Below, one piece after another: positions 19,329 to 47,922 of a DNA stretch of 64,000 nt (positions are counted from its first letter, which is position 1; every line of letters starts with the position of its first letter). Below the pieces are notes generated by a model. The model had not been told where the DNA came from. It was given only the letters and a program-made list of their open reading frames with translations, and made no database searches. The stretch spans positions 329,718 through 393,717 of the forward strand of contig CAZUHV010000001.1 of assembly GCA_964620965.1 (NCBI GenBank), written 5' to 3'. Made by a program: the position numbers and the translations under genes. Source of the DNA: an uncultured Pseudomonadales bacterium (lineage in GTDB: Bacteria; Patescibacteriota; Microgenomatia; UBA1400; PJMF01).

Positions 19329-19793
19329 ATGTATATGCAAAATGAAAAATCAAATAATAAAGAGCAAATAAGTATTGTTGAGTATAACTATAAATTACAG
19401 CAAGCATTAATTACTCTTTTCTTATGGGGAGCCCCCGCTGGGTTTTTAGAATATGTTCAAGAAAATGCATATAATCGGCCGAATGTTTTTTATCAGTTAA
19501 GCGAATCAATGGGTCATCAAAATTCCTTAGCTGGAGCAGCAGTTTTTGGTGCAGGAGAACATATCTTAGATTTTTTAGCAGAATCATTTTTTCCTGAAAA
19601 TGAAAAGCTGAGAAAAATAATCCCTTGGGTTTTATTTACAATAGCGACAATTTATAATCTTGCTCAACTAATAGAACCTCAATACGCGGATAACGCTGCA
19701 GCGGACATTTTTTGGTCTGGAACTGCGATTGGTATTTCGAGATTAATACGCAAAGTGTTCTCTGGAATTTATAAAAGGAAAACTGAGCAATAA
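19329..19793 (+). CDS. Hypothetical protein
   Basis: 154 aa ORF with two hydrophobic segments; no recognisable motif. Confidence 0.35.
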   Translation: MYMQNEKSNNKEQISIVEYNYKLQQALITLFLWGAPAGFLEYVQENAYNRPNVFYQLSESMGHQNSLAGAAVFGAGEHILDFLAESFFPENEKLRKIIPWVLFTIATIYNLAQLIEPQYADNAAADIFWSGTAIGISRLIRKVFSGIYKRKTEQ

Positions 19794-19880
19794 TCCTTAA
19801 GAAATTTTTTATTAATAAAAAAATGGTAGCGGAGACATAATGTCACTTTGGAACTTAATTTTTCAGAGTTTTTATAAATT

Positions 19881-20291
19881 TCAATTTTGTTCAGATAATA
19901 AATCTAATACGATTTGCTCAATTTCATCTCTGATCTGTCTAACACCCTCGATTGTACTTTCATAAGGGTCATCTACATTTTTGAAAACGATGTTTATACC
20001 GCTTGCAATTAAAAATTCTGGAATTATGTCTGGGTTACAAAGAACTACGATCATCTCAATTCCTTGTAACATTTCTTCAGTTACTTGTTTGATTTTTTGT
20101 TCAGAAATATCTATTCCTTTTTCCTTCATAACTTGAATGATATCTTCTCTAGGTTTGAAATTGTATTTCTGTCCGTAGTCATTTACGCCTGCACTTGTTG
20201 CGAAGTTTCCTTTTGCAAAGTGATTATAAAAACCCTCTGCCATTTGGCTTCTGCCAACATTCCCTTCACATATAAATAAAGTTTTTTTCAT
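19881..20291 (-). CDS. arsC: Low-molecular-weight phosphatase / ArsC-type (thioredoxin-coupled) arsenate reductase family
   Basis: N-terminal CEGNVGRSQMAEG P-loop (C-x-G-N-x-x-R-S), 136 aa. Ends with a TGA stop. Confidence 0.8.
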   Translation of the reverse strand: MKKTLFICEGNVGRSQMAEGFYNHFAKGNFATSAGVNDYGQKYNFKPREDIIQVMKEKGIDISEQKIKQVTEEMLQGIEMIVVLCNPDIIPEFLIASGINIVFKNVDDPYESTIEGVRQIRDEIEQIVLDLLSEQN

Positions 20292-20354
20292 AATAAATTT
20301 GATGAATTATATCATTCTTGGCACAAAAAAGTTCCAATTTCATCCCACGCTCTC

Positions 20355-20402
20355 CTGATGTGCGGAGCATGTGGGTCTGGAACCAGTGTGTCCCATAGCA
20401 CA
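20355..20402. repeat. Intergenic repeat copy 1 (core TGCGGAGCATGTGGGTCTGGAACC) followed by AGTGTG-N8-CACACT hairpin
   Basis: 24-nt core identical to the copy at 21257-21280. Lies between the cupin stop and arsC start. Confidence 0.7.
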
Positions 20403-20732
20403 CTATCTAGCCATAGTGAGCAACATCTTGAACTGTTTTGCTGCCTGCAAAGCATGCGGTGTATTGGCAGGTAAAATAAGTACCTGACCTTCGTTAACTT
20501 CGTATTTTTTTTCATCAACTGAAATAATTGCTTCACCATCTAGAATTTGCGCAAAAGCAGTAAAAGGAGTTGTATGCTCACTTAAACCTTGTCCTTTAGC
20601 AAAAGCAAATGCAGTGATAGTAGTTTTTGTGGTTTTAATAAGTTCCCTGCTCACGATAGAGCCACTTTGGTACTCGACGACATTTTTTAGAACATGCGGC
20701 GATATGGTTAGATTATATGTTACTTCTGTCAT
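20403..20732 (-). CDS. Cupin-domain protein
   Basis: 109 aa; GQGLSEHTTPF...ILPANTPHAL cupin motifs. About 60% aa identical to the paralog at 25320-25673. Confidence 0.8.
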   Translation of the reverse strand: MTEVTYNLTISPHVLKNVVEYQSGSIVSRELIKTTKTTITAFAFAKGQGLSEHTTPFTAFAQILDGEAIISVDEKKYEVNEGQVLILPANTPHALQAAKQFKMLLTMAR

Positions 20733-20754
20733 AATAATATCCTATCATGAAAAC

Positions 20755-21201
20755 CTATTTCAATTGGGTGAGTATACTATCTGCCCATTGTCTACTTTTT
20801 TGATATGTAGCCTGGTTTGGGTAGCCATCAATTTGAAGAACTGGTTCAAGAATATTTCCTTGCATTGGCTCAATTTTTTCACTACTTATTTTTCCGCTTG
20901 TTGCAAAATGGGGATAACTAGAATCACCAAGTGAGAAAAAAGCAAAATGTGTATTGTTGCAATTATGATTTTGTTGATCAGCTGTTGAAAAAAATAATTC
21001 AGTAATTGGGTTTAAGTCTCCATCCCCATACGTAGAGCTACCAAAAAAAACCAACTCATGCTCTTTTAGTTGATCGGGATTGGTATTAATAACATCAAAT
21101 AACTCTGCTTTGTGACCATTATTATTTAGATAATCAACGAGATCATTAGCTACAAGAGCCGTATTTCCCGATAGAGTAGAAAATGTTACTGCAATTTTCA
21201 T
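20755..21201 (-). CDS. Flavodoxin
   Basis: MKIAVTFSTLSGNTALVANDL FMN-phosphate-binding loop, 148 aa. Confidence 0.8.
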   Translation of the reverse strand: MKIAVTFSTLSGNTALVANDLVDYLNNNGHKAELFDVINTNPDQLKEHELVFFGSSTYGDGDLNPITELFFSTADQQNHNCNNTHFAFFSLGDSSYPHFATSGKISSEKIEPMQGNILEPVLQIDGYPNQATYQKSRQWADSILTQLK

Positions 21202-21227
21202 ATGACTTTTATTTTAGTTTCACAAGT

Positions 21228-21285
21228 CCTCGTCACTGTAGTTCGAATCTTAGGATGCGGAGCATGTGGGTCTGGAACCCTATTA
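21228..21285. repeat. Intergenic repeat copy 2 (TCACTGTAGTTCGAATCTTAGGATGCGGAGCATGTGGGTCTGGAACCC)
   Basis: About 50 nt nearly identical to copy 3; core identical to copy 1. Confidence 0.75.
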
Positions 21286-21340
21286 TCGCCATAACATATT
21301 TACTGTGATTCAATTAATCTTGACCTTATTATTCATCAAA

Positions 21341-21841
21341 TTACTTATCCAATAACATTTCCATTAAATATTTATCATAGAATTCATCCCCAACCCTTAT
21401 AGCCATTTTTTGCTCACCCACCTTTTTAAAGCCTACTGACTTGTATAAATTGTAAGCTGCAGTTTGAGTAGTCATTACTCCCAATTGTAATTTTTTTATT
21501 TCTGGTTTTGATTTTATATCTTCAATTATGGTTAGCAATAATTTTTTCCCGATACCTTTTCCTCTATCTTCTGGGCGGACATATACCCGCACAATGTTCG
21601 CTATATGAGCAAGTTTTTTCTTTTCTTCACAATAAAAACCAGCCATGCCTATGAGCTTATCATCATCAATAGCAAAATACATGTTTTTGATTCTATCTTG
21701 CCACTCTGAATCCTTTTTTGAATCTATTTCTTCTGTACTCCATAAAAATGCTTGTGGTGAATCAATAGTAGATTCTATGTAGAATTTCTTATAATCTTGC
21801 CATCTTGAAATTGGTAATGTAGTAATTTTCATACAACTCAC
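21341..21841 (-). CDS. GNAT-family N-acetyltransferase
   Basis: Motif A RGKGIGKKLL, 166 aa. Confidence 0.85.
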   Translation of the reverse strand: MSCMKITTLPISRWQDYKKFYIESTIDSPQAFLWSTEEIDSKKDSEWQDRIKNMYFAIDDDKLIGMAGFYCEEKKKLAHIANIVRVYVRPEDRGKGIGKKLLLTIIEDIKSKPEIKKLQLGVMTTQTAAYNLYKSVGFKKVGEQKMAIRVGDEFYDKYLMEMLLDK

Positions 21842-21873
21842 ATTTTAACAGATAGTTATCAAAACCTGGATAT

Positions 21874-21928
21874 CACTGTAGTTCGAATCCTAGGATGCGG
21901 AGCACCCGGGTCTGGAACCCGTGCGTCG
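21874..21928. repeat. Intergenic repeat copy 3 (TCACTGTAGTTCGAATCCTAGGATGCGGAGCACCCGGGTCTGGAACCCGTGCG)
   Basis: Matches copy 2 except TGT to CCC in the centre. Read on the minus strand it has tRNA 3'-end architecture (T-arm-like stem-loop plus a 7-nt acceptor-like strand plus G). Confidence 0.75.
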
Positions 21929-22316
21929 TTATAGCTGTCCCGTTCCAGAATAGAGCTTCCAGGGTAATTTTAACAAAAATGGGACAAATGGGACACTATA
22001 AAAAGGGTGTGTCTTGTTTTTGAAGCTCGATCATTTTGCTATTTTCACCACAAGCAGTTGTTATATTATTTTGCCTATTCATCCAACCTTTGGTTGGAAT
22101 CAATTAAAGAAATGTTTTACAATTTTCACAGATAACTATTGGGGAGTTTGGAGCTAGCCTTCAAAAAGAACTGTTAGGTTTAACAAAAGATTTTAGTTAT
22201 AATGGTCTAGCATATCTTGCAACTCAAGTATTTATTTCGTCGCTCTGAATAAAGAATAGTAATTGAATCTGCCCTATGGCTAACAACCTACTACTACAAA
22301 CAATAATTTATATCGT

Positions 22317-23238
22317 ATGCTTTTTTTGGTATGGATTGGAGCTGGCCTAGTTGTTTCTCCCATATCCGATCTCTCCAAATCTTGGAGGCTACCACGATTT
22401 ATTATCTCTTTTTTCCTACTAGGCATTCTTACTTCGCTCCCTGAAATCACGATTAGTACCATAGCCATCTTGAACAACGACCCGGTCATAGTCGCTGGCA
22501 ACTTATTAGGGGGGAGTTATTGTTATGTTCTTGGGAGTAATTCCTCTTTTGGGTTTAGTGGGCAATGGAGTAAAAATGCCCACTCAGCTCAACAAGAAAC
22601 AACTCATCATTACTCTTTTAGTTGTGGTTGCTCCGGCTTTCCTAACTGCTGACCAAAAAATTGGCCAATACGAAGCGATTTTCTTGATTTTGCTTTATCT
22701 TAGTTTATTCGTCATGTTTTCTTTCAAGCAATCATTTTTTGAAAAGATTAAAACTGGAATAATCAGCAGGAAAAAGAATAGCATGAGACATCTCTTTAAG
22801 ATTGTGCTTGGGGTTTCAATTTTAATTGGAGCTAGTAATCAAATTGTCAATTCGACTCTGTTTTTTGCAGATATGTTTAAAATATCTCCATTTTTTGTTA
22901 GTTTGATTGTAGTTGCTTTGGGGACCAACATACCTGAAATATCAATTGTTTTCCGCTCAGTTTTGAGTGGTAAAAAAGACATTGCACTAGCTGATTATCT
23001 TGGCTCTGCTAGTGCGAATACATTACTTCTTGGTATTTTCACCCTGATGCATGGAGAAACCATCCAGCTGCCCAACCACTTTTTTCAACGATTTTCTTTC
23101 TTAGCAGTAGGACTTATCTTATTTTTCTTCTTTGCTCGATCTAGAAACACGCTGTCTCGAAAAGAAAGTGCCATTTTACTCTCGCTATACCTGGGATTTA
23201 TCATGTTTGAAATGTTGCTCATTGCACGTTTGGCTTAA
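22317..23238 (+). pseudogene. Na+/Ca2+ exchanger (CaCA family) interrupted by a +/-1 frameshift at a poly-G tract (about 22505-22512)
   Basis: ORF 22317-22652 encodes the first alpha-repeat (GNLLGGSY) and ORF 22525-23238 the rest (ALGTNIPEISIV...) in another frame. The frames switch at the run AGGGGGGAG. Confidence 0.6.
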
Positions 23239-23293
23239 CTTACACGGCTATTAGGCAGAAAAAATGTTCAGATCTTTGACAAGTTTATCTGAA

Positions 23294-23773
23294 TTAAGTA
23301 CTTAGCTCTTGGAGTATGCTTTGCAAATCAAGCGGCTCTGTCACCATTTCTACCATTCCATCATTTCTGACTTTCCACTCCTTACGTGGACGGTCTACAT
23401 ATAATTCCACACCATTGTCATCCGGATCTCTTAGATAGATTGCCTCGCTTACACCATGATCCGCTGAGCCTTCAAGTGGATAGTTTGTGTCTATCAATTT
23501 TTGTAATACTTTTGCCAGCTCTTTCCTTGATGGATATAAGAAAGCCACATGGTACATACCTGTGTAGCCTCTTGGTGCTGACTTAGCACCTTTGCCCGAC
23601 CAAGTGTTGAGTCCAATATGATGATGATATCCACCTGCCGAAAGGAACACTGCTGAATCGCCGTAACGAGCCGATATCTCAAATCCTAGAAGGTCGCGAT
23701 AAAAAGCCAGTGACCGATCTAAATCAGAAACAGTAAGATGAATATGTCCAACGATAGTATCTTTATGTGCCAT
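23294..23773 (-). CDS. VOC-family (glyoxalase/bleomycin-resistance/extradiol dioxygenase-like) protein
   Basis: IGHIHLTVSDLDRSLAFYRDLLGF and a second beta-alpha-beta-beta-beta module (YHVAFLYPS...), 159 aa. Confidence 0.75.
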   Translation of the reverse strand: MAHKDTIVGHIHLTVSDLDRSLAFYRDLLGFEISARYGDSAVFLSAGGYHHHIGLNTWSGKGAKSAPRGYTGMYHVAFLYPSRKELAKVLQKLIDTNYPLEGSADHGVSEAIYLRDPDDNGVELYVDRPRKEWKVRNDGMVEMVTEPLDLQSILQELST

Positions 23774-23790
23774 ATATGTTGTTGCGGAGA

Positions 23791-24414
23791 TTAAAATCCG
23801 AGTTTTTCCTTTACCAGGATAACAGTTATTTTTCTTCCTATCATGGGATTTTCCTTGTGAAGGATAAGTGTTTTGGCGTGTGTGGTGTGAGCGTTGTAGA
23901 CACTCATTAAGCGCTTATCCTCAAGCGGAATGACGTGTTCTTCGAGTCTTTGAAGGGCGCTTTCAAGTGTGGGCGTTATCTTTTGGGCACCAACCACCAA
24001 AATGATATTTGGTGAGGTAAAGACAAGATGTGGTAACTGACTACCCGAATTTGAAGCGATGACCACCTCTCCAGTTTCAGAAAGGGCATGGACACTTCCA
24101 AGGTAATAATCTGAGAAAGCAGATTCGCGTCGGAGCTTACTTTGCTTTTCAGGATCTTTTTCAGCCAGAATGTTCGCATGAAGATTGTTCCATCCATGCG
24201 TATCAGATTTAAGATAATCAACAAAACCGATCTCTTTGAGAGTTATAGATGATCCATTATGAATCGATGCATTGGTTGGAATGAGTGATTTGATTTTTTC
24301 CAGCGCCTCAGTCTTGGTATCAACCACTTCTGCCTGAAAACCATTAGCAATCAGTGACTTCACTGTTTTGTTAATCGATTCCTGTGACGCGAGCGTGTTA
24401 AATGTGTTTGTCAT
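23791..24414 (-). CDS. LUD-domain (DUF162, LutC/YkgG-like) protein
   Basis: 207 aa; overall pattern including the C-terminal IILVVGAQKI...LILHKENP resembles the lactate-utilisation LutC family. Confidence 0.5.
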   Translation of the reverse strand: MTNTFNTLASQESINKTVKSLIANGFQAEVVDTKTEALEKIKSLIPTNASIHNGSSITLKEIGFVDYLKSDTHGWNNLHANILAEKDPEKQSKLRRESAFSDYYLGSVHALSETGEVVIASNSGSQLPHLVFTSPNIILVVGAQKITPTLESALQRLEEHVIPLEDKRLMSVYNAHTTHAKTLILHKENPMIGRKITVILVKEKLGF

Positions 24415-24439
24415 ATATCTCCTTTGAAGATAAATATCA

Positions 24440-24715
24440 TCAAGCTAAATTAGCCGTGAGTTTTTTTAATAATGTGGTCATAAAATTGGCATTTACAAAA
24501 TAAAATATTTCCTGCCCTTTGCGGGAGCTTTCTACAAGATTTACTGATTTAAGCACGTTTAAATGTTGAGAAACTGCTGGTTGTGATAATTTGGAGAGTT
24601 GTGCTATCTCTCCAACAGTTCGTGGTTTTTTCATTATTGTCTGGAGGATGGTAAATCGATTCTCGTTACCAAGCCCTTTCCCCAACATTGCCATTTGTTT
24701 ACATGTTTCTGACAT
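24440..24715 (-). CDS. ArsR/SmtB-family HTH transcriptional regulator
   Basis: 91 aa; RFTILQTI...PRTVGEIAQLSKLSQPAVSQHLNVLK winged-helix motif. Divergent from the cupin pair. Confidence 0.85.
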   Translation of the reverse strand: MSETCKQMAMLGKGLGNENRFTILQTIMKKPRTVGEIAQLSKLSQPAVSQHLNVLKSVNLVESSRKGQEIFYFVNANFMTTLLKKLTANLA

Positions 24716-24901
24716 ATTTATATATTAGCATATATGAATATATTTATGCAAGTGATAGATAAATGTCTACTGCCAACGTTTGTCTTGCATCGAGATTGAG
24801 AGGGCTAAGCCAAAGCTCTTCAGGAAAGATGATGCCAAGAAGCTTAAAGTTTTTTATCCCCTACAAACATCAGATAAATTCGTTACAATAGTAGAGAGGA
24901 G

Positions 24902-25306
24902 ATGCATATGAAAGGGGTTCACACAAATATTGATAGAGCGACTACTGAGAACCTGAATTTTCGTCAGGTACTCTATACAGGTAAACACACACAATTGGTG
25001 TTAATGTCTTTGCTGCCTGGGGAAGAAATTGGTCTTGAAACACACCTGGAAAATGATCAGTTTTTCCGTTTTGAGCAAGGTGTTGGTAGGTGCATTATTG
25101 ATGGGAACGAGTATGAAATAAAAACGGACGATGCTATCATTATTCCGGCTGGAGCTGCGCATAACATTATCAATACTTCAGAAACTGAAGCACTTAAAAT
25201 GTATACTCTTTATAGTCCTCCACATCACAAAGATAGTATCGTCAGGTCGACTAAAGCAGAAGCAGAAACTCACGAAGCAGAGTTTGACGGAATTACAACT
25301 GAATAA
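24902..25306 (+). CDS. Cupin-domain protein
   Basis: 134 aa; G.E.GLETHLEND...IIPAGAAHNIIN cupin motifs. Confidence 0.8.
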   Translation: MHMKGVHTNIDRATTENLNFRQVLYTGKHTQLVLMSLLPGEEIGLETHLENDQFFRFEQGVGRCIIDGNEYEIKTDDAIIIPAGAAHNIINTSETEALKMYTLYSPPHHKDSIVRSTKAEAETHEAEFDGITTE

Positions 25307-25319
25307 GAAAGAGATTTGT

Positions 25320-25673
25320 ATGTCAAAACCAACATTTAGCTTAGAAGTTAAACCGTTTGTAGCTGAAAAACTCATTGCCTATCAAGATGGTTCTGTAGTG
25401 AGTAGAGAAATATTAGCCACTCAAAATACCACTATCACCTTGTTTGCCTTTGCCCAAGGACAAGGACTCAGTGAGCACACCACTCCATTTAATGCCCTCA
25501 TGCAGATCTTGGATGGTGAGGCTCACATCACCATTGGCAGAGATGAATACGTGGTCAAAGCCGGAGAAATAATCATTGCTCCAGCTAACACGCCACATGC
25601 CCTTAAGGCTAGCAAAGCTTTTAAAATGATGCTGACAATGGCGCGCGATCCCAAGCCTCCCAGCACTGAATAG
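25320..25673 (+). CDS. Cupin-domain protein (paralog of 20403-20732)
   Basis: Start at ATG 25320 (MSKPTFSLEV...). GQGLSEHTTPF...APANTPHALKA; high identity to the 20.4 kb cupin. Confidence 0.8.
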   Translation: MSKPTFSLEVKPFVAEKLIAYQDGSVVSREILATQNTTITLFAFAQGQGLSEHTTPFNALMQILDGEAHITIGRDEYVVKAGEIIIAPANTPHALKASKAFKMMLTMARDPKPPSTE

Positions 25674-25903
25674 TTTTATCACACTTATTTTTGGTGTTCC
25701 CGAATTTTGATTCTTACTTCATTTTCTCGCCAATAGCTTTCACCATACCGAGAGTTTCTAAGCATTCTCGGATAGTGCCGATGTCATAGCGATCTTCGTA
25801 GTGTTGTTGTGGTTGCAAATATTGAAACGACATAACTCCTTTCGCTAACTATCACTTAGCAATAAGCATATTCGCTTTTGCCTGCTTTACCTATATAATT
25901 CAC

Positions 25904-27325
25904 TTGATGAAACTGACCAAATCACTCTTCTTAAGCTACCTGGAATCACCACTGCATATGTGGTTGTCAGTGCACAGCGATACTCCACCAAAGCCACCAT
26001 CCCTGTATGACCAGCACACGATGAAACAAGGCTACAGTGTTGAAAAATTGGCCAAAGAATTTTTAAGAGCGAAAGTTGCGACTCAGTATCCTGCTGGCAC
26101 CACACTCAGCTTTGAAGCGACCCTGACTGACGGTAACTATGAATCGCGCATTGATGCGCTAGTACATGACACCGTGAACAACACCTATGACTTGTATGAA
26201 ATCAAAAGTAGCACCACCATCCACACTGAGCATAAATATGATGTGACCTTTCAGTATTTAGTTGGCAAAGTCACTCTTCCGATCAACAAAGTTTACTTAG
26301 TCAGAGTTAACAGTGACTACCAACGGGCTGGGGAGATTGATATCGATGAACTCTTCATCGTGGAAGACATGACAGATCACATCGCCAAAAAAGAAGATGA
26401 GGTGTATCAACTCAGGTCTGAAGCATGGGGAGTGATGCGACTTGAACAAGAACCAAGTGACGAGCATTGTTTTAATCCTGGTACCTGTGTCTATCCTGAC
26501 CACTGTTTCCCCAATCTACCCGATGGCTCAATTTATGAACTAGGCAGAGCCAGCAAAAAACAATATAGCGAACTACTGGATATGGGCGTAGAGTCGGTCA
26601 GAGATATTCCCGATACGTTTACCAGTAACTATAAGCAAAGACTGCAAATTCAATCTGCCAGACAACACCAGCCAATCATTGACCACGATGCCATTGCAGA
26701 AGAATTAAGTAGGCTGGAATATCCCATCTACTTCTTAGACTATGAAACCTATGGTGAAGCTCTACCCATGTACGATGGCTATAAGCCGTATCAGCAGGCA
26801 GTCACACAGTTTTCCATCCATGTGGCTCGACATCCTGACAGCGATGAATTTGAACACTACGAGTTTCTAGCAACTGAAGCTGGCGATCCAGCCAGACACC
26901 TCGCCTCAGAGTTGTGCAAAGTCATTGGTGAGACTGGTTCAGTGATTGTGTGGAATAAGGGCTTTGAGTGTGGCAGAAATGATGAGCTGGCTGTCTTATG
27001 CCCAGATTTAGCTCCACAACTCAAAAGCATTAACGAGCGAGTCTATGACCTGATGGATATTTTCAAAGATGGTTTGTATGTCGATTACCGCTTTCATGGC
27101 AGTGCCTCAATCAAAAAAGTCTTACCCGTGCTATGTCCTGAGCTGAGTTACAAAGAATTAGAAATTGGTGAAGGAACCAAAGCTATGTTGGCTTGGTATG
27201 AGATGGTACATGGGAATTTAACTGCTGAAGCAAAAGAGCAGATCAGACAAAACTTGCTGACCTACTGCAAACTGGATACTTGGGCGATGGTGGAAATTTG
27301 GCAAGTCTTACATAATCTGATGTAG
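25904..27325 (+). CDS. RecB/Cas4-like PD-(D/E)xK nuclease domain fused to DUF2779-like C-terminal domain
   Basis: N-terminus has D-x(n)-E-x-K (IDALVHD...YDLYEIKSS) followed by a Cys cluster (CFNPGTCVYPDHC), as in Cas4/RecB-family nucleases. The 270-aa C-terminal part matches the usual architecture of DUF2779 proteins. GC clearly higher than flanking core. Confidence 0.5.
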   Translation: MMKLTKSLFLSYLESPLHMWLSVHSDTPPKPPSLYDQHTMKQGYSVEKLAKEFLRAKVATQYPAGTTLSFEATLTDGNYESRIDALVHDTVNNTYDLYEIKSSTTIHTEHKYDVTFQYLVGKVTLPINKVYLVRVNSDYQRAGEIDIDELFIVEDMTDHIAKKEDEVYQLRSEAWGVMRLEQEPSDEHCFNPGTCVYPDHCFPNLPDGSIYELGRASKKQYSELLDMGVESVRDIPDTFTSNYKQRLQIQSARQHQPIIDHDAIAEELSRLEYPIYFLDYETYGEALPMYDGYKPYQQAVTQFSIHVARHPDSDEFEHYEFLATEAGDPARHLASELCKVIGETGSVIVWNKGFECGRNDELAVLCPDLAPQLKSINERVYDLMDIFKDGLYVDYRFHGSASIKKVLPVLCPELSYKELEIGEGTKAMLAWYEMVHGNLTAEAKEQIRQNLLTYCKLDTWAMVEIWQVLHNLM

Positions 27326-27517
27326 ACAAAACCCGAAAAGACTTTTATATTCATTTTCAGATCTTTAAAAAACTGGCGAGGAAACCTCCAGCCCTTATTA
27401 GGGGGTATTAGTCTAGCTCACGCCTTCCCTCCTAAGGACATCACTTGGTGTTTTTAGGCGGGGGAGCGTTTTAAGTAGCAAGCTTCCCTTTAATACATTG
27501 GAAAGGAGGTGAGAAAA

Positions 27518-27694
27518 ATGGTTAGATTCCAAATCTATATTGACCAAAATGGTGAATACAGATGGCGTCTTGTCGCTGCAAACAACGAAATCGTTGCTTG
27601 GAGTGAAGGTTATAAAACCAAGCAAGGTGCTGTCGATTCAGCAAATTGGGTCAAGACCAACGCAAGTTGGGCCCCAATCCATGATTTAACCTAG
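27518..27694 (+). CDS. DUF1508 (YegP-like) domain protein
   Basis: MVRFQIYIDQNGEYRWRLVAANNEIVAWSEGYKTKQGAVDSANWV is a typical YegP/DUF1508 repeat. Strong RBS AGGAGGTG 7 nt upstream of ATG 27518. Confidence 0.75.
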   Translation: MVRFQIYIDQNGEYRWRLVAANNEIVAWSEGYKTKQGAVDSANWVKTNASWAPIHDLT

Positions 27695-27701
27695 TGTTAA
27701 A

Positions 27702-28241
27702 TCACTCCTCGTCAGTTTTTTGAGGATAAACCATAAAAGCAAGTCTTCTACGAAACATAGACCAGTTGTCCCATTTCAAATCTGACCAATATCTCCAACT
27801 TAACTTTTTCTTATATTTGTTACCTATTGAATCAATGAAAACTAAATTATCAACTGATTTTCTTTCATCTATACATGCTTGTTTAACCAAATCATAATTA
27901 AGTGTTACTGTTATTTGCTCATTCTCGTCCAACTTTTTTGGCAAATCATAAACTAAGTAATCATTAGGAAAAACAAATAAAGATTTTTTATCAGATGTTT
28001 CAAACTCAGCACTTTCCACTACGATTGGTCTTCTGCCAGCATTTCTTATGACTAGAGATAAAGTATCAATCTGCTGTCTCATTCCCACAGTAAATCCTCT
28101 TTTTATACCAACTTTTATTTTTGGTTTATCTTGTAGATAAATGATGGTAGATAAAATTGCACCCCAACCGGCCAGAACAACAGTAGTAATTCTATCCCAA
28201 TTTGCACCAATATTTTGGATAAATGAGTTTAGATCGACCAT
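27702..28241 (-). CDS. Hypothetical membrane-anchored protein
   Basis: 179 aa; one N-terminal TM helix (ITTVVLAGWGAILSTIIYL) and a soluble domain; no motif recognised. Confidence 0.45.
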   Translation of the reverse strand: MVDLNSFIQNIGANWDRITTVVLAGWGAILSTIIYLQDKPKIKVGIKRGFTVGMRQQIDTLSLVIRNAGRRPIVVESAEFETSDKKSLFVFPNDYLVYDLPKKLDENEQITVTLNYDLVKQACIDERKSVDNLVFIDSIGNKYKKKLSWRYWSDLKWDNWSMFRRRLAFMVYPQKTDEE

Positions 28242-28260
28242 ATATTTTTTTATAAATTTT

Positions 28261-28402
28261 CTAAGATTTCAATTTGTACGTCCTCATCAAAATCATCAAT
28301 GTTATCAACTAAATCATTTGCATTATCTTGAATGATTTCTTCAGTTTCGTCGGTTGAGCCTTCTTCTTGTATTTTTTCAATGAGATCAAAATCATTGGGC
28401 AT
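28261..28402 (-). CDS. Possible small highly acidic protein (47 aa)
   Basis: Not in the ORF track (under 60 aa). The minus-strand ORF gives MPNDFDLIEKIQEEGSTDETEEIIQDNANDLVDNIDDFDEDVQIEIL, immediately downstream of hsdR. Weak RBS. Confidence 0.25.
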
Positions 28403-28462
28403 GTTAGCTACTTTCAGGTTTTTTCATTTGTTCTAATTCTAATTTTTTTGTTTATAAGCTAA

Positions 28463-31432: not shown

Positions 31433-31436
31433 ATGC

Positions 31437-41455: not shown

Positions 41456-41567
41456 GCCCTAATTGTTTAGTGAAAAGGTGTTTCACTCCACTTATTGACA
41501 GTTAGCAATTTAGCCTGGTATTGAGCTTGCTTTTATGCTAACTCTGGCTTATCATTAGTCAGGATAT

Positions 41568-42671
41568 ATGCCAATAATTGTGTCCCAAAATGGGAGAAAC
41601 GCCACTAAATTAGACAAAATCAGCTTCGGTTTGGAGAATAAACTACAAGCTTACATCTACGATAATCCAGAAAGCATTCCTTTGTATGACATTAAAGACG
41701 ATATTCGCTTGCTGATTCTGGCTCGGGAGTTTGGCACAACTAGTGGACCCATCGATGCTGTAGGTATTGATGGCGATGGTCAGCTCTATTTGATAGAAAC
41801 CAAGCTCTATAAGAATCCCGACAAACGAACAGTAGTTGCTCAGGTTTTGGATTATGGTGCTTCACTCTGGAAAAGCCTTAACGACTTTGATGACTTCCTT
41901 CTCCAGCTCAACGGTCATGTGCAAAAGAAATTTGGTATGTCAGCGACTGAAAAGATTAAAACCTTCTTTGGCATTGATGATGAGCGATTACAGACTGTAC
42001 TAGAGCAAATGAAGCTTAACCTAGATGAAGGCAACTTCAAGTTCGTAGTGCTGATGGACAGCATGGAAGACAGGCTTAAAGATCTAATCGTCTACATGAA
42101 CCAAAACAGCAAGTTCGATATCTATGGCGTGGAGTTGGAGTATTACCAACATGATAGTTTTGAAATTCTCATCCCGAAGATTTACGGTGCTCAAGTCAAA
42201 AAAGATGTGGGTAGCAAGCGAGTGAGTTCAACGGTTATCTCTGACGAAGAATTTATCCAAGCCTTTGAACAGCCAGTGCAGCCAGTTGTGCAAAGTATCA
42301 TGCAACTAAGTGCTGACATTTCCGCAGGGGGCATATCCATTCAGGGATTATCGAGTCGTAAAACTCCTAAAAACATCAACTTCTACTTCACCTACTCTGA
42401 CCAAGAGAAAAATGCACTAACTGTAACGATCGGAGTAAATGGTGGCATTGCTGGCAAAACACTAGACTTCTGGTGTAATAACCCAGAGAGATTGGAGCAA
42501 GTAACTACTTCTATTCAAGAGGTGCTCGGGATTGAAACTAAACACCTACCAACTGGTACAGGTTATGGCATTGTGGCAAAGTGGGATTTAAAGGAAGTGA
42601 GTATAGACAAGCTAATTTTATTGTTTGAACATATTGTGAAACTTAGAACAATCGAAAGTTCTAGTCTATAA
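41568..42671 (+). CDS. Hypothetical protein with N-terminal PD-(D/E)xK (NucS/RecB-like) nuclease-type motif
   Basis: 367 aa; IDAVGIDGDGQLYLIETKLYKNP...QVLDYG resembles the D-x(n)-E-x-K plus Q..Y core of NucS/DUF91-type nucleases. The C-terminal 200 aa are unrecognised. Confidence 0.35.
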   Translation: MPIIVSQNGRNATKLDKISFGLENKLQAYIYDNPESIPLYDIKDDIRLLILAREFGTTSGPIDAVGIDGDGQLYLIETKLYKNPDKRTVVAQVLDYGASLWKSLNDFDDFLLQLNGHVQKKFGMSATEKIKTFFGIDDERLQTVLEQMKLNLDEGNFKFVVLMDSMEDRLKDLIVYMNQNSKFDIYGVELEYYQHDSFEILIPKIYGAQVKKDVGSKRVSSTVISDEEFIQAFEQPVQPVVQSIMQLSADISAGGISIQGLSSRKTPKNINFYFTYSDQEKNALTVTIGVNGGIAGKTLDFWCNNPERLEQVTTSIQEVLGIETKHLPTGTGYGIVAKWDLKEVSIDKLILLFEHIVKLRTIESSSL

Positions 42672-42678
42672 TGAGCAT

Positions 42679-42876
42679 ATGAATAAAATAATGATTAGGG
42701 TGTTTCTGCTATTAGCTGGTATTGCTATCACATTTCATTATTTACTCCCTGCGTTTGCGAGAAACCAGTGTGCTCACAACCTTCAAGACAAGTCTAACTA
42801 TCAACTGGAACGAGAGAAGGATGTTTATAGATATCGCTTCTTCACTTGCCTTTCGTATTATGGAGTTGAAAAATGA
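42679..42876 (+). CDS. Small membrane protein (1 TM)
   Basis: 65 aa; hydrophobic segment VFLLLAGIAITFHYLL. ATGA overlap with the next gene. Confidence 0.35.
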   Translation: MNKIMIRVFLLLAGIAITFHYLLPAFARNQCAHNLQDKSNYQLEREKDVYRYRFFTCLSYYGVEK

Positions 42877-43283
42877 CAAGAAAACAACTTTTATTATCTG
42901 ATCTAAGAGAAAAACTAAATAAAAACAAAGCCTTTCCGATTTATAAGAAAAAGATTAGTAATGATGATTTGAAGTTGGTATTTACTGACAAAGAACTCAA
43001 GAAAAAATCTGGTCTCAAAACTTATACGCTTATATTTGGAATATTTGTTTTACTAACTGGCTTATTTTCAATTGACCTTGTACGAATGTTTGTTGGATTA
43101 GTTTTTGTATTTGTGTCAATGTTTATGGAAAACCCAAATATTAAATTCTTGAAGGAAAGAATTAAAAAAAGCCCAGATCATCTGATTAGTGCATTTGAAA
43201 ATGGTTTAGTAACTTTTCACCTAATGGGCGGTTTCGGAACTATTTCTAAAGATGATACCCAGTTGGTTGAAGATGAGGAATAG
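42873..43283 (+). CDS. Membrane protein (2 TM)
   Basis: 136 aa; hydrophobic helices TYTLIFGIFVLLTGLFSI and FVGLVFVFVSMF; acidic C-terminus. Confidence 0.4.
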   Translation: MTRKQLLLSDLREKLNKNKAFPIYKKKISNDDLKLVFTDKELKKKSGLKTYTLIFGIFVLLTGLFSIDLVRMFVGLVFVFVSMFMENPNIKFLKERIKKSPDHLISAFENGLVTFHLMGGFGTISKDDTQLVEDEE

Positions 43284-43286
43284 CAT

Positions 43287-44204
43287 ATGAGTAAAGTTGT
43301 GAAACATGGTGACTCGCATGGTATCTATAGAACTGAGGATGGTGAGATTATTTATGGAGAAAGTCGTTTTGTTTTCATCAAAAACTTAAGCTATTACCTC
43401 GCTGAGTTAAAAATTTATGCCGATGGAATGGTTGATTGCTGGGGGTTGATTGATCTTGATGAATTAAAAGAAAAACTTGATAGTGGTTGGATAACCTTAA
43501 GTATTCCCAATGGAGCAAGTGTTGATATCCACATGTTAAGCTCACTTAAAGTCAGTGAAGCAAATAACTACATATCAAATCAGGAATTCCTCAAAGAAAT
43601 TCAAGACACCATCTCTGATTTAAATGATCAGCCGACTTCTTTAGAATTGTGCAGAAATGCATATGAAAAATACCTAGACGATAAAAGTACTGAAAACAAA
43701 ATAAAGTTAAGAAAAGCTTACTATGCTATGCCGAAGCATATGAGACACTTTGTTTTGGGAGATATGCAGGCGAAAGATTCACCAATTACATCAATTATCG
43801 ATACAGTGGACTTAGATGAAGTTGAACCAAAATTTCCATTTAAAAAAGATGAAAAATTCATTGAGTTATATAAGCAAGTTGCTCAAGATAAAATTCCTTA
43901 TTATTGGGCAGTGATAAAAATTGATGGCATTAAGCCGTTTAGTGATGCTGATGTTGAAATTGAAGATAGTTTTAGAAAACATTTCTTAGAAAAATATACT
44001 GAGGGCAAGCCTATTTCAATTCATGTATATCAGGATGGTGATGTTTTCATTATGAGTGATGACTATATGAGTTTTACCCTTTATAAGGGACTAGGTGTGA
44101 AGACAATACCTTGTTTAGTAATGGGAGATCCTGTCGGAGACCACGTGATAGATAAAATGAAAATCCGCTTTCAAGCACCAACAGTTGTAGTTAATCAGGA
44201 GTAA
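43287..44204 (+). CDS. Hypothetical protein
   Basis: 305 aa soluble ORF; no motif recognised. Starts 4 nt after the previous gene. Confidence 0.4.
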   Translation: MSKVVKHGDSHGIYRTEDGEIIYGESRFVFIKNLSYYLAELKIYADGMVDCWGLIDLDELKEKLDSGWITLSIPNGASVDIHMLSSLKVSEANNYISNQEFLKEIQDTISDLNDQPTSLELCRNAYEKYLDDKSTENKIKLRKAYYAMPKHMRHFVLGDMQAKDSPITSIIDTVDLDEVEPKFPFKKDEKFIELYKQVAQDKIPYYWAVIKIDGIKPFSDADVEIEDSFRKHFLEKYTEGKPISIHVYQDGDVFIMSDDYMSFTLYKGLGVKTIPCLVMGDPVGDHVIDKMKIRFQAPTVVVNQE

Positions 44205-44213
44205 CTTTCTAGC

Positions 44214-44246
44214 CTAGACTTTCCATCCTTTCGCGGTACCTTGTCG
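44214..44246. repeat. Direct repeat copy 1 (CTAGACTTTCC...TCGCGGTACCTTGT) upstream of the serine recombinase
   Basis: Shares CTAGACTTNCC-N7-TCGCGGTACCTTGT with a second copy at 44413-44445. Followed by CTTGTC-N8-GACAAG inverted repeat. Confidence 0.6.
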
Positions 44247-44384
44247 CTGTATGGACAAGACTACATTGCTAAAACTCATTAAACGGTGTGAGTACTATTT
44301 CTATCGCTATCTCGTAACTGGCGACAAACGGCTCATCGATAAGTTTTTCCAACACAGTAGACGACTCAAAAATGAGGTTAGCAA

Positions 44385-44627
44385 ATGATGCCAAAAAACC
44401 TCGATTCCACAGCTAGACTTACCCAAGAATCGCGGTACCTTGTGTCCTTGATGAAAGACATAATACCAGATCATAAACTTCAAAAAGCAATCAAGATTTT
44501 GGACCAATGCATATTTGCCATCAAATTTTATGAAAAAACTGGGCAAGACAAGTACATTGATGAACTTACTTGGGCGGTACGAAGACTGAATCAATTTTTG
44601 AACGAGAAAGGAGAAAACCATGACTGA
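44385..44627 (+). CDS. Small hypothetical protein upstream of, and overlapping, the serine recombinase (possible excision/directionality or regulatory factor)
   Basis: 80 aa ORF. Contains direct-repeat copy 2 inside its 5' end. Function is inferred from position only. Confidence 0.3.
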   Translation: MMPKNLDSTARLTQESRYLVSLMKDIIPDHKLQKAIKILDQCIFAIKFYEKTGQDKYIDELTWAVRRLNQFLNEKGENHD

Positions 44628-45924
44628 TATTCGCTACTGCCTATATGCCAGAAAATCGAGTGAGTCGGATGAGCGCCAAGCAATGAGTATTGATGGACAA
44701 ATTAGTGAGATGCTCAAGATTGCCAAGCGGGAAAAAGTAAATGTGGTTGAAACAATTACTGAAAGTCATTCCGCCAAAGAGTCTGGTCAGCGACCTGAGT
44801 TCAACATTCTACTCAGTAAACTATATGAAGGAAAGTTCAACGCTATTTTAACTTGGGCACCCGACCGTCTCAGTCGTAATGCTGGAGATCTAGGAAGAAT
44901 AGTTGATTTAATGGATCAGGGAAAGCTCATCCAAATAAAAACCTATTCGCAATCATTCACCAACAATCCTAACGAAAAATTCCTCCTCATGATTTTATGT
45001 AGTCAGGCAAAGCTTGAGAATGATAATCGAGGCGTGAATGTAAAACGAGGTTTAAGAAATAAATGTGAGTTTGGCATCAGACCAGGACTTGCTCCAATTG
45101 GTTACACCAATGTGTTGAAAGCTAACCGCATCTCAACAGTTGAACAAGATACACAGCGAGCACCCATTATTAAAGAAATCTTTGAAAAAGTTGCGTACCA
45201 AGGATACTCAGGCAGAATGGTTAAAAAGTGGCTCGATGACATCGATTTTCGAACCAAAAGTGGCTGTCGGATGCCTCTGAGTAAAGTCTATGTAGCTCTG
45301 CAAAATTCATTTTATTATGGTGAATTTCAATACGGCGATAAGTGGTACAAAGGAACGCATAAACCTCTGATCAGTAAGACTCTATTCGAGAAGGTACAGA
45401 TCCAACTACAAGTTGCTCCCAAGCAATGGAATAAACAACTTTTCCCATTCAAAAAGATTTGTAAATGCGGATCATGCGGTGGAAGCGTGACAGCTGAAAT
45501 TAAGTATCGAAGAACAAAAGCAAACCAAGTGAATACTCACATTTACTATCATTGTAATCGTATCAAAAAATATGACTGCAAAGAGCCATACATTACAGAA
45601 GAAGAGTTGATTAAACAGCTGATTGGTCATCTACCTGCAATCAAGCTCAACACAAAATATTTGATAGCTGAGTTTGAAACTGAAGTTAAGCGACTTCAGC
45701 ATCTAAAAGCTACGGTGATAGATAAATTCACGCCAAGGTTTGAACTAACACAGCATAATACTGGAGCTGAAAATACTGATGAAGTATCTAGCTCGCAAAC
45801 AGAAATCATTAGAGAATATTTGCTCCATGTACTTCAGTACGGAACTCCCGAGGAGAGATTGAAAATATTGGGTGGGGTGAAGTCAAAATTTGAATTGAAA
45901 GATAGAAAAATTGAGTTACTCTAA
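44620..45924 (+). CDS. Large serine recombinase (resolvase/invertase catalytic domain plus recombinase domain plus zinc ribbon)
   Basis: N-terminal YARKSSESDERQAMSIDGQ catalytic Ser motif, central recombinase domain, CKCGSCGG...YYHCNR zinc-ribbon; 434 aa. Confidence 0.85.
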   Translation: MTDIRYCLYARKSSESDERQAMSIDGQISEMLKIAKREKVNVVETITESHSAKESGQRPEFNILLSKLYEGKFNAILTWAPDRLSRNAGDLGRIVDLMDQGKLIQIKTYSQSFTNNPNEKFLLMILCSQAKLENDNRGVNVKRGLRNKCEFGIRPGLAPIGYTNVLKANRISTVEQDTQRAPIIKEIFEKVAYQGYSGRMVKKWLDDIDFRTKSGCRMPLSKVYVALQNSFYYGEFQYGDKWYKGTHKPLISKTLFEKVQIQLQVAPKQWNKQLFPFKKICKCGSCGGSVTAEIKYRRTKANQVNTHIYYHCNRIKKYDCKEPYITEEELIKQLIGHLPAIKLNTKYLIAEFETEVKRLQHLKATVIDKFTPRFELTQHNTGAENTDEVSSSQTEIIREYLLHVLQYGTPEERLKILGGVKSKFELKDRKIELL

Positions 45925-45929
45925 AAAAA

Positions 45930-46472
45930 TTAAAGAACTGGTTCAAAATCCCATTTCGATTCGTAGTCTACAGCCAACGGGGTGTCAATTGGATAGCCAT
46001 CATTTTCCAAGCCTATTCTAAATCTTCTCAAATTTGTGTCGCTTTCCTCAGTCTTTGTAGACAACCAATATTGATGTTGTTCTCTAACGTAGTTAGCCAC
46101 AATATTGCTTGGTACAACAAAAAATCTAAATACTTGTTCAGAAGAGATATTTACGAAAATATAAAATAGATTGGGATCAACAATAGTTTCATGCTTCTCA
46201 GACATCATTCAGTCAAATGTATTGCCAAACATTCTTGATTTATATGCGTTGTCTCTATAGTGAGTTTTAACCTCAATTTTAAACATTCTTCCTGTTTCGG
46301 GGTCAGCCACCAAGATATCAACGCTTTTAGTATTACCCAATGTCATGTTGGCATCATAACCATACAGAGTAAGTTGAGATAAAACAGCAAACTCACCTGC
46401 CAAAGCAATAGAATTATTTGAAAGATTACGCATTCCTTCAGTATAACAAGGAACAAAAAAGCTTAGAACCAA
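45930..46472 (-). pseudogene. PD-(D/E)xK nuclease-family (Hjc/restriction-endonuclease-like) gene split by an in-frame TGA (46209-46211)
   Basis: ORFs 46209-46472 and 45930-46208 are in the same frame, separated only by TGA (...MFGNTFD*MMSEKHE...). The N-terminal part has the VDILVADPETGRMFKIEVKT motif. Confidence 0.5.
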
Positions 46473-46618
46473 CGACTTTTCCTTCCAAGCGTTTTTAGGC
46501 GATTTTCTAGCTTACAGGCCTCTTTTGCGACCCCCATGCCTTTTGTGGAAAATTAAGTAAGATACATCAATCTATTTGAGCATAGTAGGTGGGTCTTGGA
46601 GCAACCAAGGGGTGTTTG

Positions 46619-46702
46619 CGGAGGTGAAGGGATTCGAACCCTTGAATCCAATAAGGATCACGCTTTCCAGGCGTGTGCAATTGACCACTATGCGACACCT
46701 CC
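46619..46702 (-). tRNA. tRNA-Ser (anticodon GGA), class II with long variable arm; CCA not encoded
   Basis: Minus-strand sequence GGAGGTG-TC-GCA-TAGTGGTCAAT-TGC-A-CACGC-CTGGAAA-GCGTG-(15-nt variable arm)-AAGGG-TTCGAAT-CCCTT-CACCTCC-G. All stems pair. Confidence 0.85.
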
Positions 46703-46760
46703 AAAAAGTTCTGGTAAGAAATTTATTATAACAAAAAATCCAATAAAAACCTGAGAAGAT

Positions 46761-47243
46761 TTACTCAATATCCAGGTTTTCAACAGCCTTTACCATTCCA
46801 GGATGTCCTAAGAAACTGTCTTGCTTCTCTAAAATTTCTTCTCTTGAATACCACCTCGCTGCATAAATATCTTCTTGAGCTGGGTTGTGAGAGACATCAA
46901 GTGCTGGATCGCCCACTACGCTACATTGATATCCAATACAAACTATATGGACTCCACTTTTTTCTGGAGAATCGTGCTCCTTTTCTCCCAGAACAAAATC
47001 CCATGCTCCTACAACTTTTCCGACTTCAATTTCTAAACCAACTTCTTCTTGCACTTCTCTTTTAAGTGCAGAAAGTAAATCTTCACCAAACTCAATTCCT
47101 CCTCCAGGAAAATCAATTATTTCAACTGGATTACCTTCTCTCATAACATTTTCATGAATCATGAGGATCTTCCGCTCGTGCACAATCAGTGCTTTTACAC
47201 CAGGACGCATTCTTTGTTTTTGTTGCAAATGATCTGTAGACAT
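46761..47243 (-). CDS. NUDIX hydrolase
   Basis: Nudix box GGGIEFGEDLLSALKREVQEEVGLE, 160 aa. Confidence 0.85.
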   Translation of the reverse strand: MSTDHLQQKQRMRPGVKALIVHERKILMIHENVMREGNPVEIIDFPGGGIEFGEDLLSALKREVQEEVGLEIEVGKVVGAWDFVLGEKEHDSPEKSGVHIVCIGYQCSVVGDPALDVSHNPAQEDIYAARWYSREEILEKQDSFLGHPGMVKAVENLDIE

Positions 47244-47315
47244 ATAACAGAATTATCTCACAAATATAAAATCGTTTATGAAGAAAAAACAACCAAAATT
47301 ATTTGAGCAAATAGA

Positions 47316-47834: not shown

Positions 47835-47922
47835 GGAGGCATCGCATAGTGGCCAATTGCAACAGGTTGCTAACCTGTACCAGATTTCTGGTTCCTGGGT
47901 TCAAATCCCAGTGCCTCCGCCA
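47835..47922 (+). tRNA. tRNA-Ser (anticodon GCU), class II; CCA encoded
   Basis: GGAGGCA-TC-GCA-TAGTGGCCAAT-TGC-A-ACAGG-TTGCTAA-CCTGT-(variable arm ACCAGATTTCTGGTT)-CTGGG-TTCAAAT-CCCAG-TGCCTCC-G-CCA. Confidence 0.85.

Follow-up and report, generated by a model that had tools for sequence, protein, structure and literature searches.

In staphylococcal cassette chromosome (SCCmec) elements, Ccr large serine recombinases act at the 3' end of rlmH, and both composite arrays and ccr-less pseudo-SCC elements are known (see also PMC6222049). Cis-mobilisable elements (CIMEs) are flanked by the att sites of integrative elements and are usually decayed remnants of integrative and conjugative elements (ICEs). 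At tRNA genes (tDNA), islands and prophages can sit in tandem (Islander-type mapping, PMC4383910), and the tycheposons of Prochlorococcus are multi-gene elements that mostly carry tyrosine recombinases and replication modules, a minority having large serine recombinases (10.1101/2020.12.28.424599). Here we describe an array of integrative units in a stretch of 64,000 nucleotides (the window; positions 329,718 to 393,717 of contig CAZUHV010000001.1, assembly GCA_964620965.1), in which short repeats resembling the 3' end of a tRNA-Ser gene separate one large element, bearing a gene for a large serine recombinase (LSR), from a series of small units. We consider it probable that these repeats represent recombination-site junctions, and that the integrative elements to which they belong form a family of Patescibacteria (the candidate phyla radiation, CPR; mainly Microgenomates) inserting at tRNA-Ser 3' ends.

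The array reads, in order, tRNA-Ser(GGA), a 24.7-kb LSR element, a GNAT cassette, a flavodoxin+cupin cassette, an arsC unit and the chromosomal flank, and extends from 46617 down to about 19829 (Table 1; coordinates without an L-number are window positions, and L003 to L130 denote comparison loci from other assemblies). We call the repeat the right end (RE) of a unit, and distinguish two classes of left end, LE-i and LE-ii. The RE copies are co-oriented with tRNA-Ser(GGA), and all flanking array genes lie on the minus strand. Comparison between loci demonstrates the discreteness and mobility of the units, their junction sequences, the specificity for tRNA-Ser and the adjacency of the LSR to tRNA-Ser 3' ends.

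Table 1. Features of the tRNA-Ser(GGA) array in the window
Feature	Position	Strand	Remarks
tRNA-Ser(GCU)	47835..47922	+	divergent from tRNA-Ser(GGA); ARAGORN
tRNA-Ser(GGA)	46618..46702	-	array anchor; ARAGORN, Rfam tRNA 59 bits
LE-ii(A)	46530..46617	-	left end of the LSR element, aacaccccttGGTTGCTCCAAGACCCacctactatgctcaaatagattgatg...; recurs at other loci
LSR integrative element, 24.7 kb	21897..46617	-	absent in sister strains; syntenic uncultivated virus genome (UViG)
LSR gene, 434 aa	44620..45924	+	catalytic-serine motif YARKSS; Pfam Resolvase + Recombinase + Zn_ribbon_recom
Long RE	21897..22022	-	right end of the LSR element; includes copy 3 core 21897-21919
GNAT cassette, 640 bp	21257..21896	-	A+LE-i 21873-21896; RE copy 2 21257-21279
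GNAT open reading frame	21341-21841 (also given as 21341-21832)	-	
Flavodoxin+cupin cassette, 895 bp	20362..21256	-	A+LE-i 21233-21256; RE copy 1 20362-20384
Flavodoxin, 148 aa	20755-21201	-	
Cupin	20403-20732	-	
arsC unit	19829..20361	-	low-molecular-weight phosphatase family; arsC-like gene 19881-20291

As in tDNA islands, the array is bounded by an intact tRNA gene and, opposite it, by a tRNA-3'-like direct repeat; newer elements displace older ones outward, and occupancy varies at the level of strains. Whereas tDNA islands usually have a tyrosine integrase, the enzyme here is a LSR; the crossover lies at the very 3' end of the tRNA gene (discriminator/CCA), so that the RE is a diverged mimic of the recognition half-site (16/23) and not a displaced duplicate, and most units are single-gene cassettes with no integrase. 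Among the features by which tDNA islands are recognised, a boundary tRNA, an opposite direct repeat (in the form of the mimic) and a junction polymorphism were all found, and an integrase near one end was found in the 24.7-kb element only. The likeness to SCCmec lies in the insertion of LSR-type elements at the 3' end of a conserved gene, in the carriage of a copy of the att core, which leads to tandem composites, and in recombinase-less members presumed to be mobilised in trans; unlike SCCmec, the target here is tRNA-Ser, in any of five isoacceptors, the units go down to 53-900 bp with one open reading frame (ORF), and the host is a Patescibacterium, with an autonomous element that has terminase-like genes. 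Tycheposons likewise comprise cargo elements at tRNA genes, including tRNA-Ser, partial tRNAs and islands that arise from repeated integration, but a conserved family of mini-cassettes with defined ends of 23-45 nt is not described for them (10.1101/2020.12.28.424599). With CIMEs the system shares units that lack an integrase, that have the att sites of a related autonomous element at their borders and that have accreted beside this element, although the small units here form a diverse and widely shared cassette pool, one member of which is 99.7-100% identical across ten loci. With integrons it shares co-oriented, mostly single-ORF, recombinase-free cassettes that end in a site, an array anchored at one fixed position and a possible upstream promoter, but no IntI was found among the ORFs scanned next to the arrays, the site is neither an attC hairpin nor provided with GTTRRRY, and a tRNA gene serves as anchor, with a serine enzyme as the associated recombinase. 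The system belongs with the tDNA-targeting islands in tandem, with an SCC-like accretion, and with the tycheposons; its cassettes are integron-like, and it is not itself an integron. It differs from classical tDNA islands in the serine recombinase, the crossover at the 3' extreme with a mimic of the target, and the shared pool of mini-cassettes. A full-text search of the literature found no description of a tRNA-Ser/RE cassette system, and one paper on horizontal transfer in Patescibacteria makes no mention of tRNA, recombinase or cassette.

The limits of the large element are given by sister strains. In four loci from other sequencing runs (L081, L112, L114 and L115) the 24.7-kb block is absent exactly at the tRNA/GNAT junction: tRNA-Ser(GGA) and its upstream NUDIX flank are identical to those of the window and are joined, as ...CACCTCCGC/A-TCCTAGG, to the GNAT cassette, which in these assemblies sits directly on the tRNA gene. 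In the window, the end of tRNA-Ser(GGA), ...CACCTCCGCA, is directly followed by the left end of the island, LE-ii(A) (aacaccccttGGTTGCTCCAAGACCC...), then by 24.7 kb, RE copy 3 and the GNAT cassette. The IMG/VR UViG 3300025018_003594 (26.1 kb) is syntenic over both island ends, aligning with 38.5-46.6 kb and 21.9-30.5 kb of the window at 68-79% nucleotide identity; it starts with CCGCCA/LE-ii(A) and ends with a long RE, the same two termini, and shows the 24.7-kb block to be one element. LE-ii(A) is also found directly after tRNA-Ser(ACU) in L076, tRNA-Ser(GCU) in L087, and tRNA-Ser(UGA) and tRNA-Ser(CGA) in L120. LE-i was not found in viral contigs, where RE occurs only in the provirus-like UViG.

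The LSR gene lies about 690 nt from the left end of the island and encodes a protein of complete architecture (Pfam E-values of 8e-21 for Resolvase, 2e-13 for Recombinase and 1e-7 for the zinc ribbon). The cargo comprises a ParB-methylase/terminase-like module, a type I restriction-modification system, DUF2779, cupins, ArsR-LUD-VOC and a CaCA pseudogene. The module (37203-41259), with a ParB-N6/N4 methylase, a small helix-turn-helix (HTH) protein, a terminase-large-like protein and the LSR, is also present in L117, L128 and L130, and recurs with no capsid genes in its vicinity; the helper could be a phage element, either defective or satellite-like. Beside the long RE, the CaCA (Na/Ca exchanger) gene (22317-23238, plus strand) is split between two ORFs that overlap; it is probably a pseudogene, and in BroJett025 this same fragment and the long RE make up a 1.4-kb unit on tRNA-Ser(GCU). 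In the restriction-modification region (33960-36934), two paralogous ORFs in tandem (488 and 503 aa) share stretches of ~71-78% identity at a spacing of 1475 nt (repeat families D1, D2 and D5).

The flavodoxin+cupin unit, from ATCCTAAG to GCTCCGC (21256 to 20362), was recovered over its full length, base 1 to base 895, at 99.7-100% identity in ten loci, where it has at least six different left neighbours; host flanks compared between these genomes are only 69-86% identical. An index of the contig collection lists the exact 148-aa flavodoxin in 48 blocks, and the surroundings of the gene differ considerably among the ten places displayed. The left neighbour of the cassette is a genuine tRNA-Ser(GCU) in L074, L075, L077 and L079 (...GGGTTCGAATCCCATCGCTTCCGC/A-TCCTAAG), the genuine 3' end of tRNA-Ser(ACU) in L082, or an RE, of which there are four different kinds. 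At the right junction all loci read ...ACATGCTCCGC, then CA and unrelated flank, as in CCA-agaatg, where the CCA of the tRNA and its native downstream sequence are restored. TCCGC is the sole sequence common to left and right junctions, which indicates a conservative, reciprocal site-specific exchange at the discriminator, with no target duplication, and not homologous recombination. The GNAT cassette is missing from L076 (BroJett025, a closer-to-complete relative). No integrase was found in the GNAT, flavodoxin+cupin and arsC units.

At the far end of the array, L081 shares the chromosomal flank of the window, with 5 kb of other content in place of arsC and homology restarting at 19835. The two loci have different degenerate terminal REs, followed by an identical flank (TTTTTTTATTAAT), and the array therefore runs from 46617 to about 19829. 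The terminal RE to the right of the arsC unit (19829-19860) reads GTTCCAAAGTGACATTATGTCTCCGC/TACCA, and to the left of this unit there is an inverted RE-like sequence, GTTCCAATTTCATCCCACGCTCTCC (plus strand, 20331-20355), so placed that the two ends of the unit (20331-20361 and 19829-19860) face outward. This inverted end stands head-to-head with copy 1, forming the only significant hairpin (z = -2.7), and in L108 (440-500) it corresponds to a CCGCCA-terminated RE on the other strand. Simple inversion or crossover models for the arsC unit were set aside, as they leave 7 extra nt over.

The window tRNA-Ser(GCU), intact up to ...CCTCCGCCA and followed by ordinary flank, appears to be an unoccupied target; this isoacceptor is occupied in L074, L075, L077, L079, L076 and L087. 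Divergent tRNA-Ser pairs are frequent (window 46618-47922; L120 7543-8620; L076 5480-8497) and each could bear its own outward array, and the LSR element occupies different members of the tRNA-Ser set between relatives.

These comparisons bear on most of what a sequence-only reading of the window had proposed. Serial integration at a tRNA-Ser 3' end is supported by the anchoring of the array at tRNA-Ser(GGA), by the sister strains that lack 24.7 kb at the tRNA/GNAT junction and by the presence of the 895-bp cassette on genuine tRNA-Ser genes elsewhere. Relatives differ in length at this locus, the opposite of the conserved gene order and length that would have spoken against that proposal. The island had been placed at about 20.3-46.6 kb, its far end being 19829-19835 and not 20.3 kb; the more degenerate copy suspected at 19834-19860 is real, and is the terminal RE of the array, at which sister-strain homology restarts (19835). 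The repeats do delimit the arsC, cupin+flavodoxin and GNAT modules, and the proposal of a cassette array with no tyrosine integrase was largely right, in that the small units are single-ORF, co-oriented and each end in a site.

The repeat itself is conserved as a sequence. Its core, GCGGAGCAYNYGGGTCTGGAACC on the plus strand, occurs at 20362-20384, 21257-21279 and 21897-21919 (copies 1, 2 and 3), and not once in 100 shuffles. Copies 2 and 3 have 48 nt in common, with 92% identity, and copy 1 shares with them only the 24-27-nt core (repeat family D3). On the minus strand, the orientation of the cassettes, every copy reads GGTTCCAGACCC-nnn-TGCTCCGC, and over 105 unique members the conserved part of the RE is G.TAT..GGAC..A..GGTTCCAGACCC..ATGCTCCGC, conservation ending sharply past CCGC(A). 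From T-stem to discriminator, a copy and the window tRNA-Ser(GCU) are identical, read directly, at 16 of 23 positions. T-stem-like pairing amounts to 4 pairs in copy 3 and 2-3 pairs in copies 1 and 2; among the 105 members GG/CC alone is conserved in the stem, the outer four positions being pairable in 15-41%, which indicates that the RE is conserved as sequence and not as a tRNA-like fold. In fact, no conserved T-arm or cloverleaf was found in these 105 sequences, in which conserved pairing is limited to 2-3 bp with no covariation, and neither ARAGORN nor Rfam, at gathering or permissive thresholds, calls any of the copies, both tools recognising in the window two tRNA-Ser genes and nothing else. 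RNA folding compared with shuffles gave z = -2.7 for copy 1, which folds by pairing with the RE-like sequence that stands inverted at the end of the arsC unit, and z = 0.0 and -0.5 for copies 2 and 3. A tRNA-like RNA identity for the RE was dropped, as T-arm pairing and covariation are unsupported beyond GG/CC. Judged from its sequence, the RE is a diverged mimic of the tRNA-Ser 3' end rather than an exact duplicate. A nhmmer profile of 78 REs detected no further strong copies in the window, including the inside of the 24.7-kb island; weak matches at 53727 and 19714 look like chance. Within the ORF at 19329-19793, positions 19700-19723 (plus strand) read GCGGACATTTTTTGGTCTGGAAC, partly like the core (GGTCTGGAAC plus GCGGA), with a nhmmer E of 2.8, probably by chance.

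The three near-identical intergenic copies and the tRNA 3'-end resemblance reported by the sequence-only reading hold, the latter at the level of sequence; the 5-bp stem that it described was overstated. The weaker relative that it had noticed at 46575-46610 exists but is of another class, namely the LE-ii of the LSR element, which recurs after tRNA-Ser genes or REs at many other loci.

Of the 12 lineages examined, 10, including the window (GGA), have a homologue of the LSR (58-98% identity) beside a tRNA-Ser gene or beside a 3' end of tRNA-Ser type. The left end abuts tRNA-Ser(ACU) in L076 (LSR 97% identical to that of the window), tRNA-Ser(GCU) in L087 (89%), tRNA-Ser(UGA) in L120 (86%) and tRNA-Ser(GGA) in L117 (73%), L128 and L130 (67% each) and L048 (66%); in L041 (60%) it abuts a tRNA-Ser(GGA)-like 3' end, at the end of the locus, and in L015 (58%) a tRNA-Ser-like 3' end, ...CTTCCGCCA. 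In all nine of these loci the LSR gene is at most about 1.3 kb from a variant of LE-ii that directly abuts the 3' end, and the LE-ii subtype varies by LSR clade. The minimal element, in L041, measures ~3.3 kb and consists of LE-ii, LSR and long RE. In Patescibacteria the LSR family forms more than 120 clusters at >=65% identity. All-against-all clustering over 80 array loci returned no other recurrent recombinase, the LSR alone being found (4 loci), and no tyrosine recombinase family. The LSR is the best candidate for the recombinase of the system, and the small cassettes would be mobilised by it in trans. Two further observations concern the tRNA genes at these loci. ARAGORN repeatedly calls a tRNA-Ser with anticodon ACU, unusual for bacteria, and such genes are also integration targets (L076 5480-5567, L080 4107-4192, L082 9860-9945, L003 6033-6118, L091 11923-12010). 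In L041 a tRNA-like gene (about 400-500, minus strand) lies between a promoter-like box and the RE; its acceptor is GCATCCA/TGGATGC, its T-arm is good and its anticodon region is enlarged by an insertion of ~38 nt; ARAGORN makes no call.

Taking junctions and neighbours together, we propose that insertion takes place at the very last positions of tRNA-Ser, in the TCCGC of the discriminator, leaving the body of the tRNA intact, and that the right RE of each element, a mimic of T-arm and acceptor of ~25-45 nt, would offer a fresh copy of the target. As the RE presents the target again, the next element may land at the tRNA or at the RE, and in both cases a co-oriented array downstream of the tRNA gene would result. 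The LSR would catalyse insertion and act in trans on small cassettes, with the CC dinucleotide as the putative crossover. A circular form of the island would join the long RE to LE-ii(A), a cassette circle is expected to have a junction such as GGGACACACTGGTTCCAGACCCACATGCTCCGC-ATCCTAAGATTCGAACTACAGTGACGAGG, and the empty site would read as the tRNA-Ser(GGA) end ...CACCTCCGC, then the chromosomal flank TACCATTTTTTTATTAAT.

The geometry of the left ends is compatible with such an enzyme. In copies 2 and 3 the RE is followed by A plus LE-i, TCCTAGGATTCGAACTACAGTGA, and many small cassettes open with LE-i, which repeats the T-arm of the tRNA in inverted form (10/12), symmetrically about a central CC. 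The tRNA/LE-i junction, GGTTCGAATCCC-N7-CC-N7-AGGATTCGAACT, constitutes a 40-bp dyad (12-7-2-7-12, arm identity 10/12) whose central CC falls within the TCCGC crossover zone. With its arms 16 bp apart, this dyad would fit in size and geometry the attB of a serine integrase, and not the core of a tyrosine recombinase.

Several observations weigh against this interpretation. Canonical LSRs recombine attP with attB only, and by this rule neither insertion at attL-like or RE/LE junctions nor the mobilisation of cassettes whose own site is attB-like is simply explained. The long RE/LE-ii combination, the presumed attP of the LSR element, has no clear dyad; the spacing from motif to centre is the same in the RE as in the tRNA, so that the left side does not evidently show the half-site offset between attP and attB that is canonical for serine integrases. 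A conserved left end is altogether lacking in some units, such as the 714-nt unit on tRNA-Ser(UGA) in L045, and naive tRNA targets share no conserved sequence in their right flank. We infer a role of the LSR in recombination from adjacency only, and LSR genes are present in only 4 of about 80 8-kb array loci; in L091 (LSR 47%) the LSR gene is 4.6 kb from tRNA-Ser(ACU), and in L088 (LSR 79%) the sequence to the left of LE-ii is not clearly tRNA-like, for which reason L088 was also set aside as a candidate free attP. Finally, many contigs are k=31 Logan assemblies, in which repeats of 48 nt may lead to false joins; the junction types of the Logan contigs are also present in assemblies from NCBI and JGI.

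Two other recombination mechanisms were considered. An integron-like system, in which a tyrosine recombinase encoded elsewhere (IntI-like or Xer-like) would use the RE as an attC-type site and the tRNA-Ser 3' end as attI, would agree with the co-oriented, mostly single-ORF, recombinase-free cassettes that each close with a site, with conservation lying almost wholly 5' of the junction, with cassettes that have no conserved left end, as attC, and with the promoter-like box upstream of arrays; a XerC/D-type gene does occur in one LSR locus (L117). However, a scan that took in 20 ORFs about the array, and not the remainder of the genome, gave no Phage_integrase match, and none is enriched in the 80 loci; the RE has no R''/L''-L'/R' palindrome, a hairpin potential of 2-3 bp and no GTTRRRY at the crossover, which is in TCCGC; the 16 bp between the conserved arms are too many for the 6-8-bp overlap of tyrosine recombinases, and the LSR is the sole recombinase that moves together with these ends. 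We regard such a system as unlikely. Still less probable is a 'peel-and-paste' mechanism by a Y1 HUH transposase (IS200/IS605 or REP-associated tyrosine transposase, RAYT), which would recognise a T-arm-like hairpin, cut at a fixed distance 3' and place units 3' of TCCGC. Such an enzyme would agree with units that lie immediately 3' of a pentanucleotide with which the element itself terminates, no target being duplicated, and with the asymmetry of the site, and in L120-L127 an IS200-type Y1_Tnp gene with HUH and Y motifs (about 4079-4444, minus strand) lies just upstream of the LSR; but tblastn found no Y1 homologue in the window, nor is there one in most LSR elements, the RE hairpin has 2-3 bp and no covariation, the left ends have no matching subterminal hairpin, and a 5-nt target alone fails to explain the exclusive use of tRNA-Ser and RE.

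The repeat could instead be primarily a regulatory or RNA element (promoter, 5' untranslated region, tRNA-like processing signal, or similar to repetitive extragenic palindromic (REP) sequences), with no role in mobility. Copies stand 30-140 nt upstream of start codons, and the sequence resembles a substrate of tRNA-processing enzymes. In the window the long RE includes an operator-like TATAGTGTCCCATTTGTCCC, present in 50 of 98 REs, and an extended -10-like box, TGTTAAAAT (21967-21975). About half of the REs are of this long type. Of the 98 REs, 57 (against 16 expected) have a TAnAAT box 40-80 nt upstream, in 36 of them at offset 42/43 (-42/-43), and its extended form, TGnTAnAAT, is found in 28. 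Since the TGTTAAAAT box points into the cassettes, an outward promoter in the long RE, driving transcription of the downstream cassettes, is plausible. Nevertheless, unit boundaries match the repeat to the base in many genomes, copies are confined to tRNA-Ser arrays and do not occur genome-wide, there is no conserved tRNA-like fold and copies 2 and 3 show no significant fold; a shared regulatory element as sole explanation, which had been raised from the sequence, is contradicted by the precise presence/absence polymorphisms, and we give it hardly any credence. A regulatory function may coexist with the recombination role, which it would not replace.

Junctions between integrative units at tRNA-Ser 3' ends, the interpretation that we favour, also recur well beyond the window. 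A scan with the core, taking one genome per species, retrieved 72 genomic stretches, several with 2-4 copies; nearly all are titled Patescibacteria (Microgenomates, Shapiro-, Levyi-, Roizman- and Pacebacteria) or are uncultured metagenome-assembled genomes (MAGs) labelled Pseudomonadales or Gammaproteobacteria, at least two of which bear a 'PATE' isolate name. Three core matches, in sequence of high GC content, look fortuitous. Near the core, tRNA-Ser genes are strongly enriched, and the tRNAs that abut element ends are tRNA-Ser. The census between RE-type ends gave 40 distinct units of 47-2649 nt, the small ones with one sense ORF each, and two size classes can be recognised: autonomous-looking, LSR-bearing elements of 3-26 kb, with the LSR next to LE-ii, and cassettes of 0.05-1.5 kb, usually with one ORF and no recombinase. 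L045 illustrates a longer array, which runs tRNA-Ser(CGA)/LE-ii..RE/LE-i..RE/LE-i..RE/LE-i(53 nt, empty)RE/LE-i..RE/terminator; its empty 53-nt unit (2111-2164, minus strand), LE-i followed by RE, may be a minimal recombination substrate.

The CPR/Patescibacteria have tiny genomes and their gene exchange is little known, and the system described here represents a concrete, sequence-defined route. The loci of the 895-bp cassette, several of which are separate MAGs, always place it at tRNA-Ser 3' ends or mimics. We tentatively put forward, as a possibility that falls somewhat short of probable, that Patescibacteria have an integron-like platform for gene capture, with an LSR, borne by a terminase-carrying helper element, in the place of IntI, the tRNA-Ser 3' end as fixed entry point, a 25-45-nt tRNA mimic as the site that restores the target at every insertion, an outward promoter in the right end of the helper for expression of the cassettes, and a pool of cassettes; if this is true, flavodoxin, cupin, GNAT, arsC-like, HD and other cassettes would circulate between many CPR lineages. 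If the LSR drives the system, this would be a second, independently evolved cassette-array system besides integrons, its enzymes would be a natural set of serine integrases that target tRNA genes at short, defined sites and could interest genome engineers, and the RE and LE motifs would offer a simple marker for the flexible gene pool of CPR in metagenomes.

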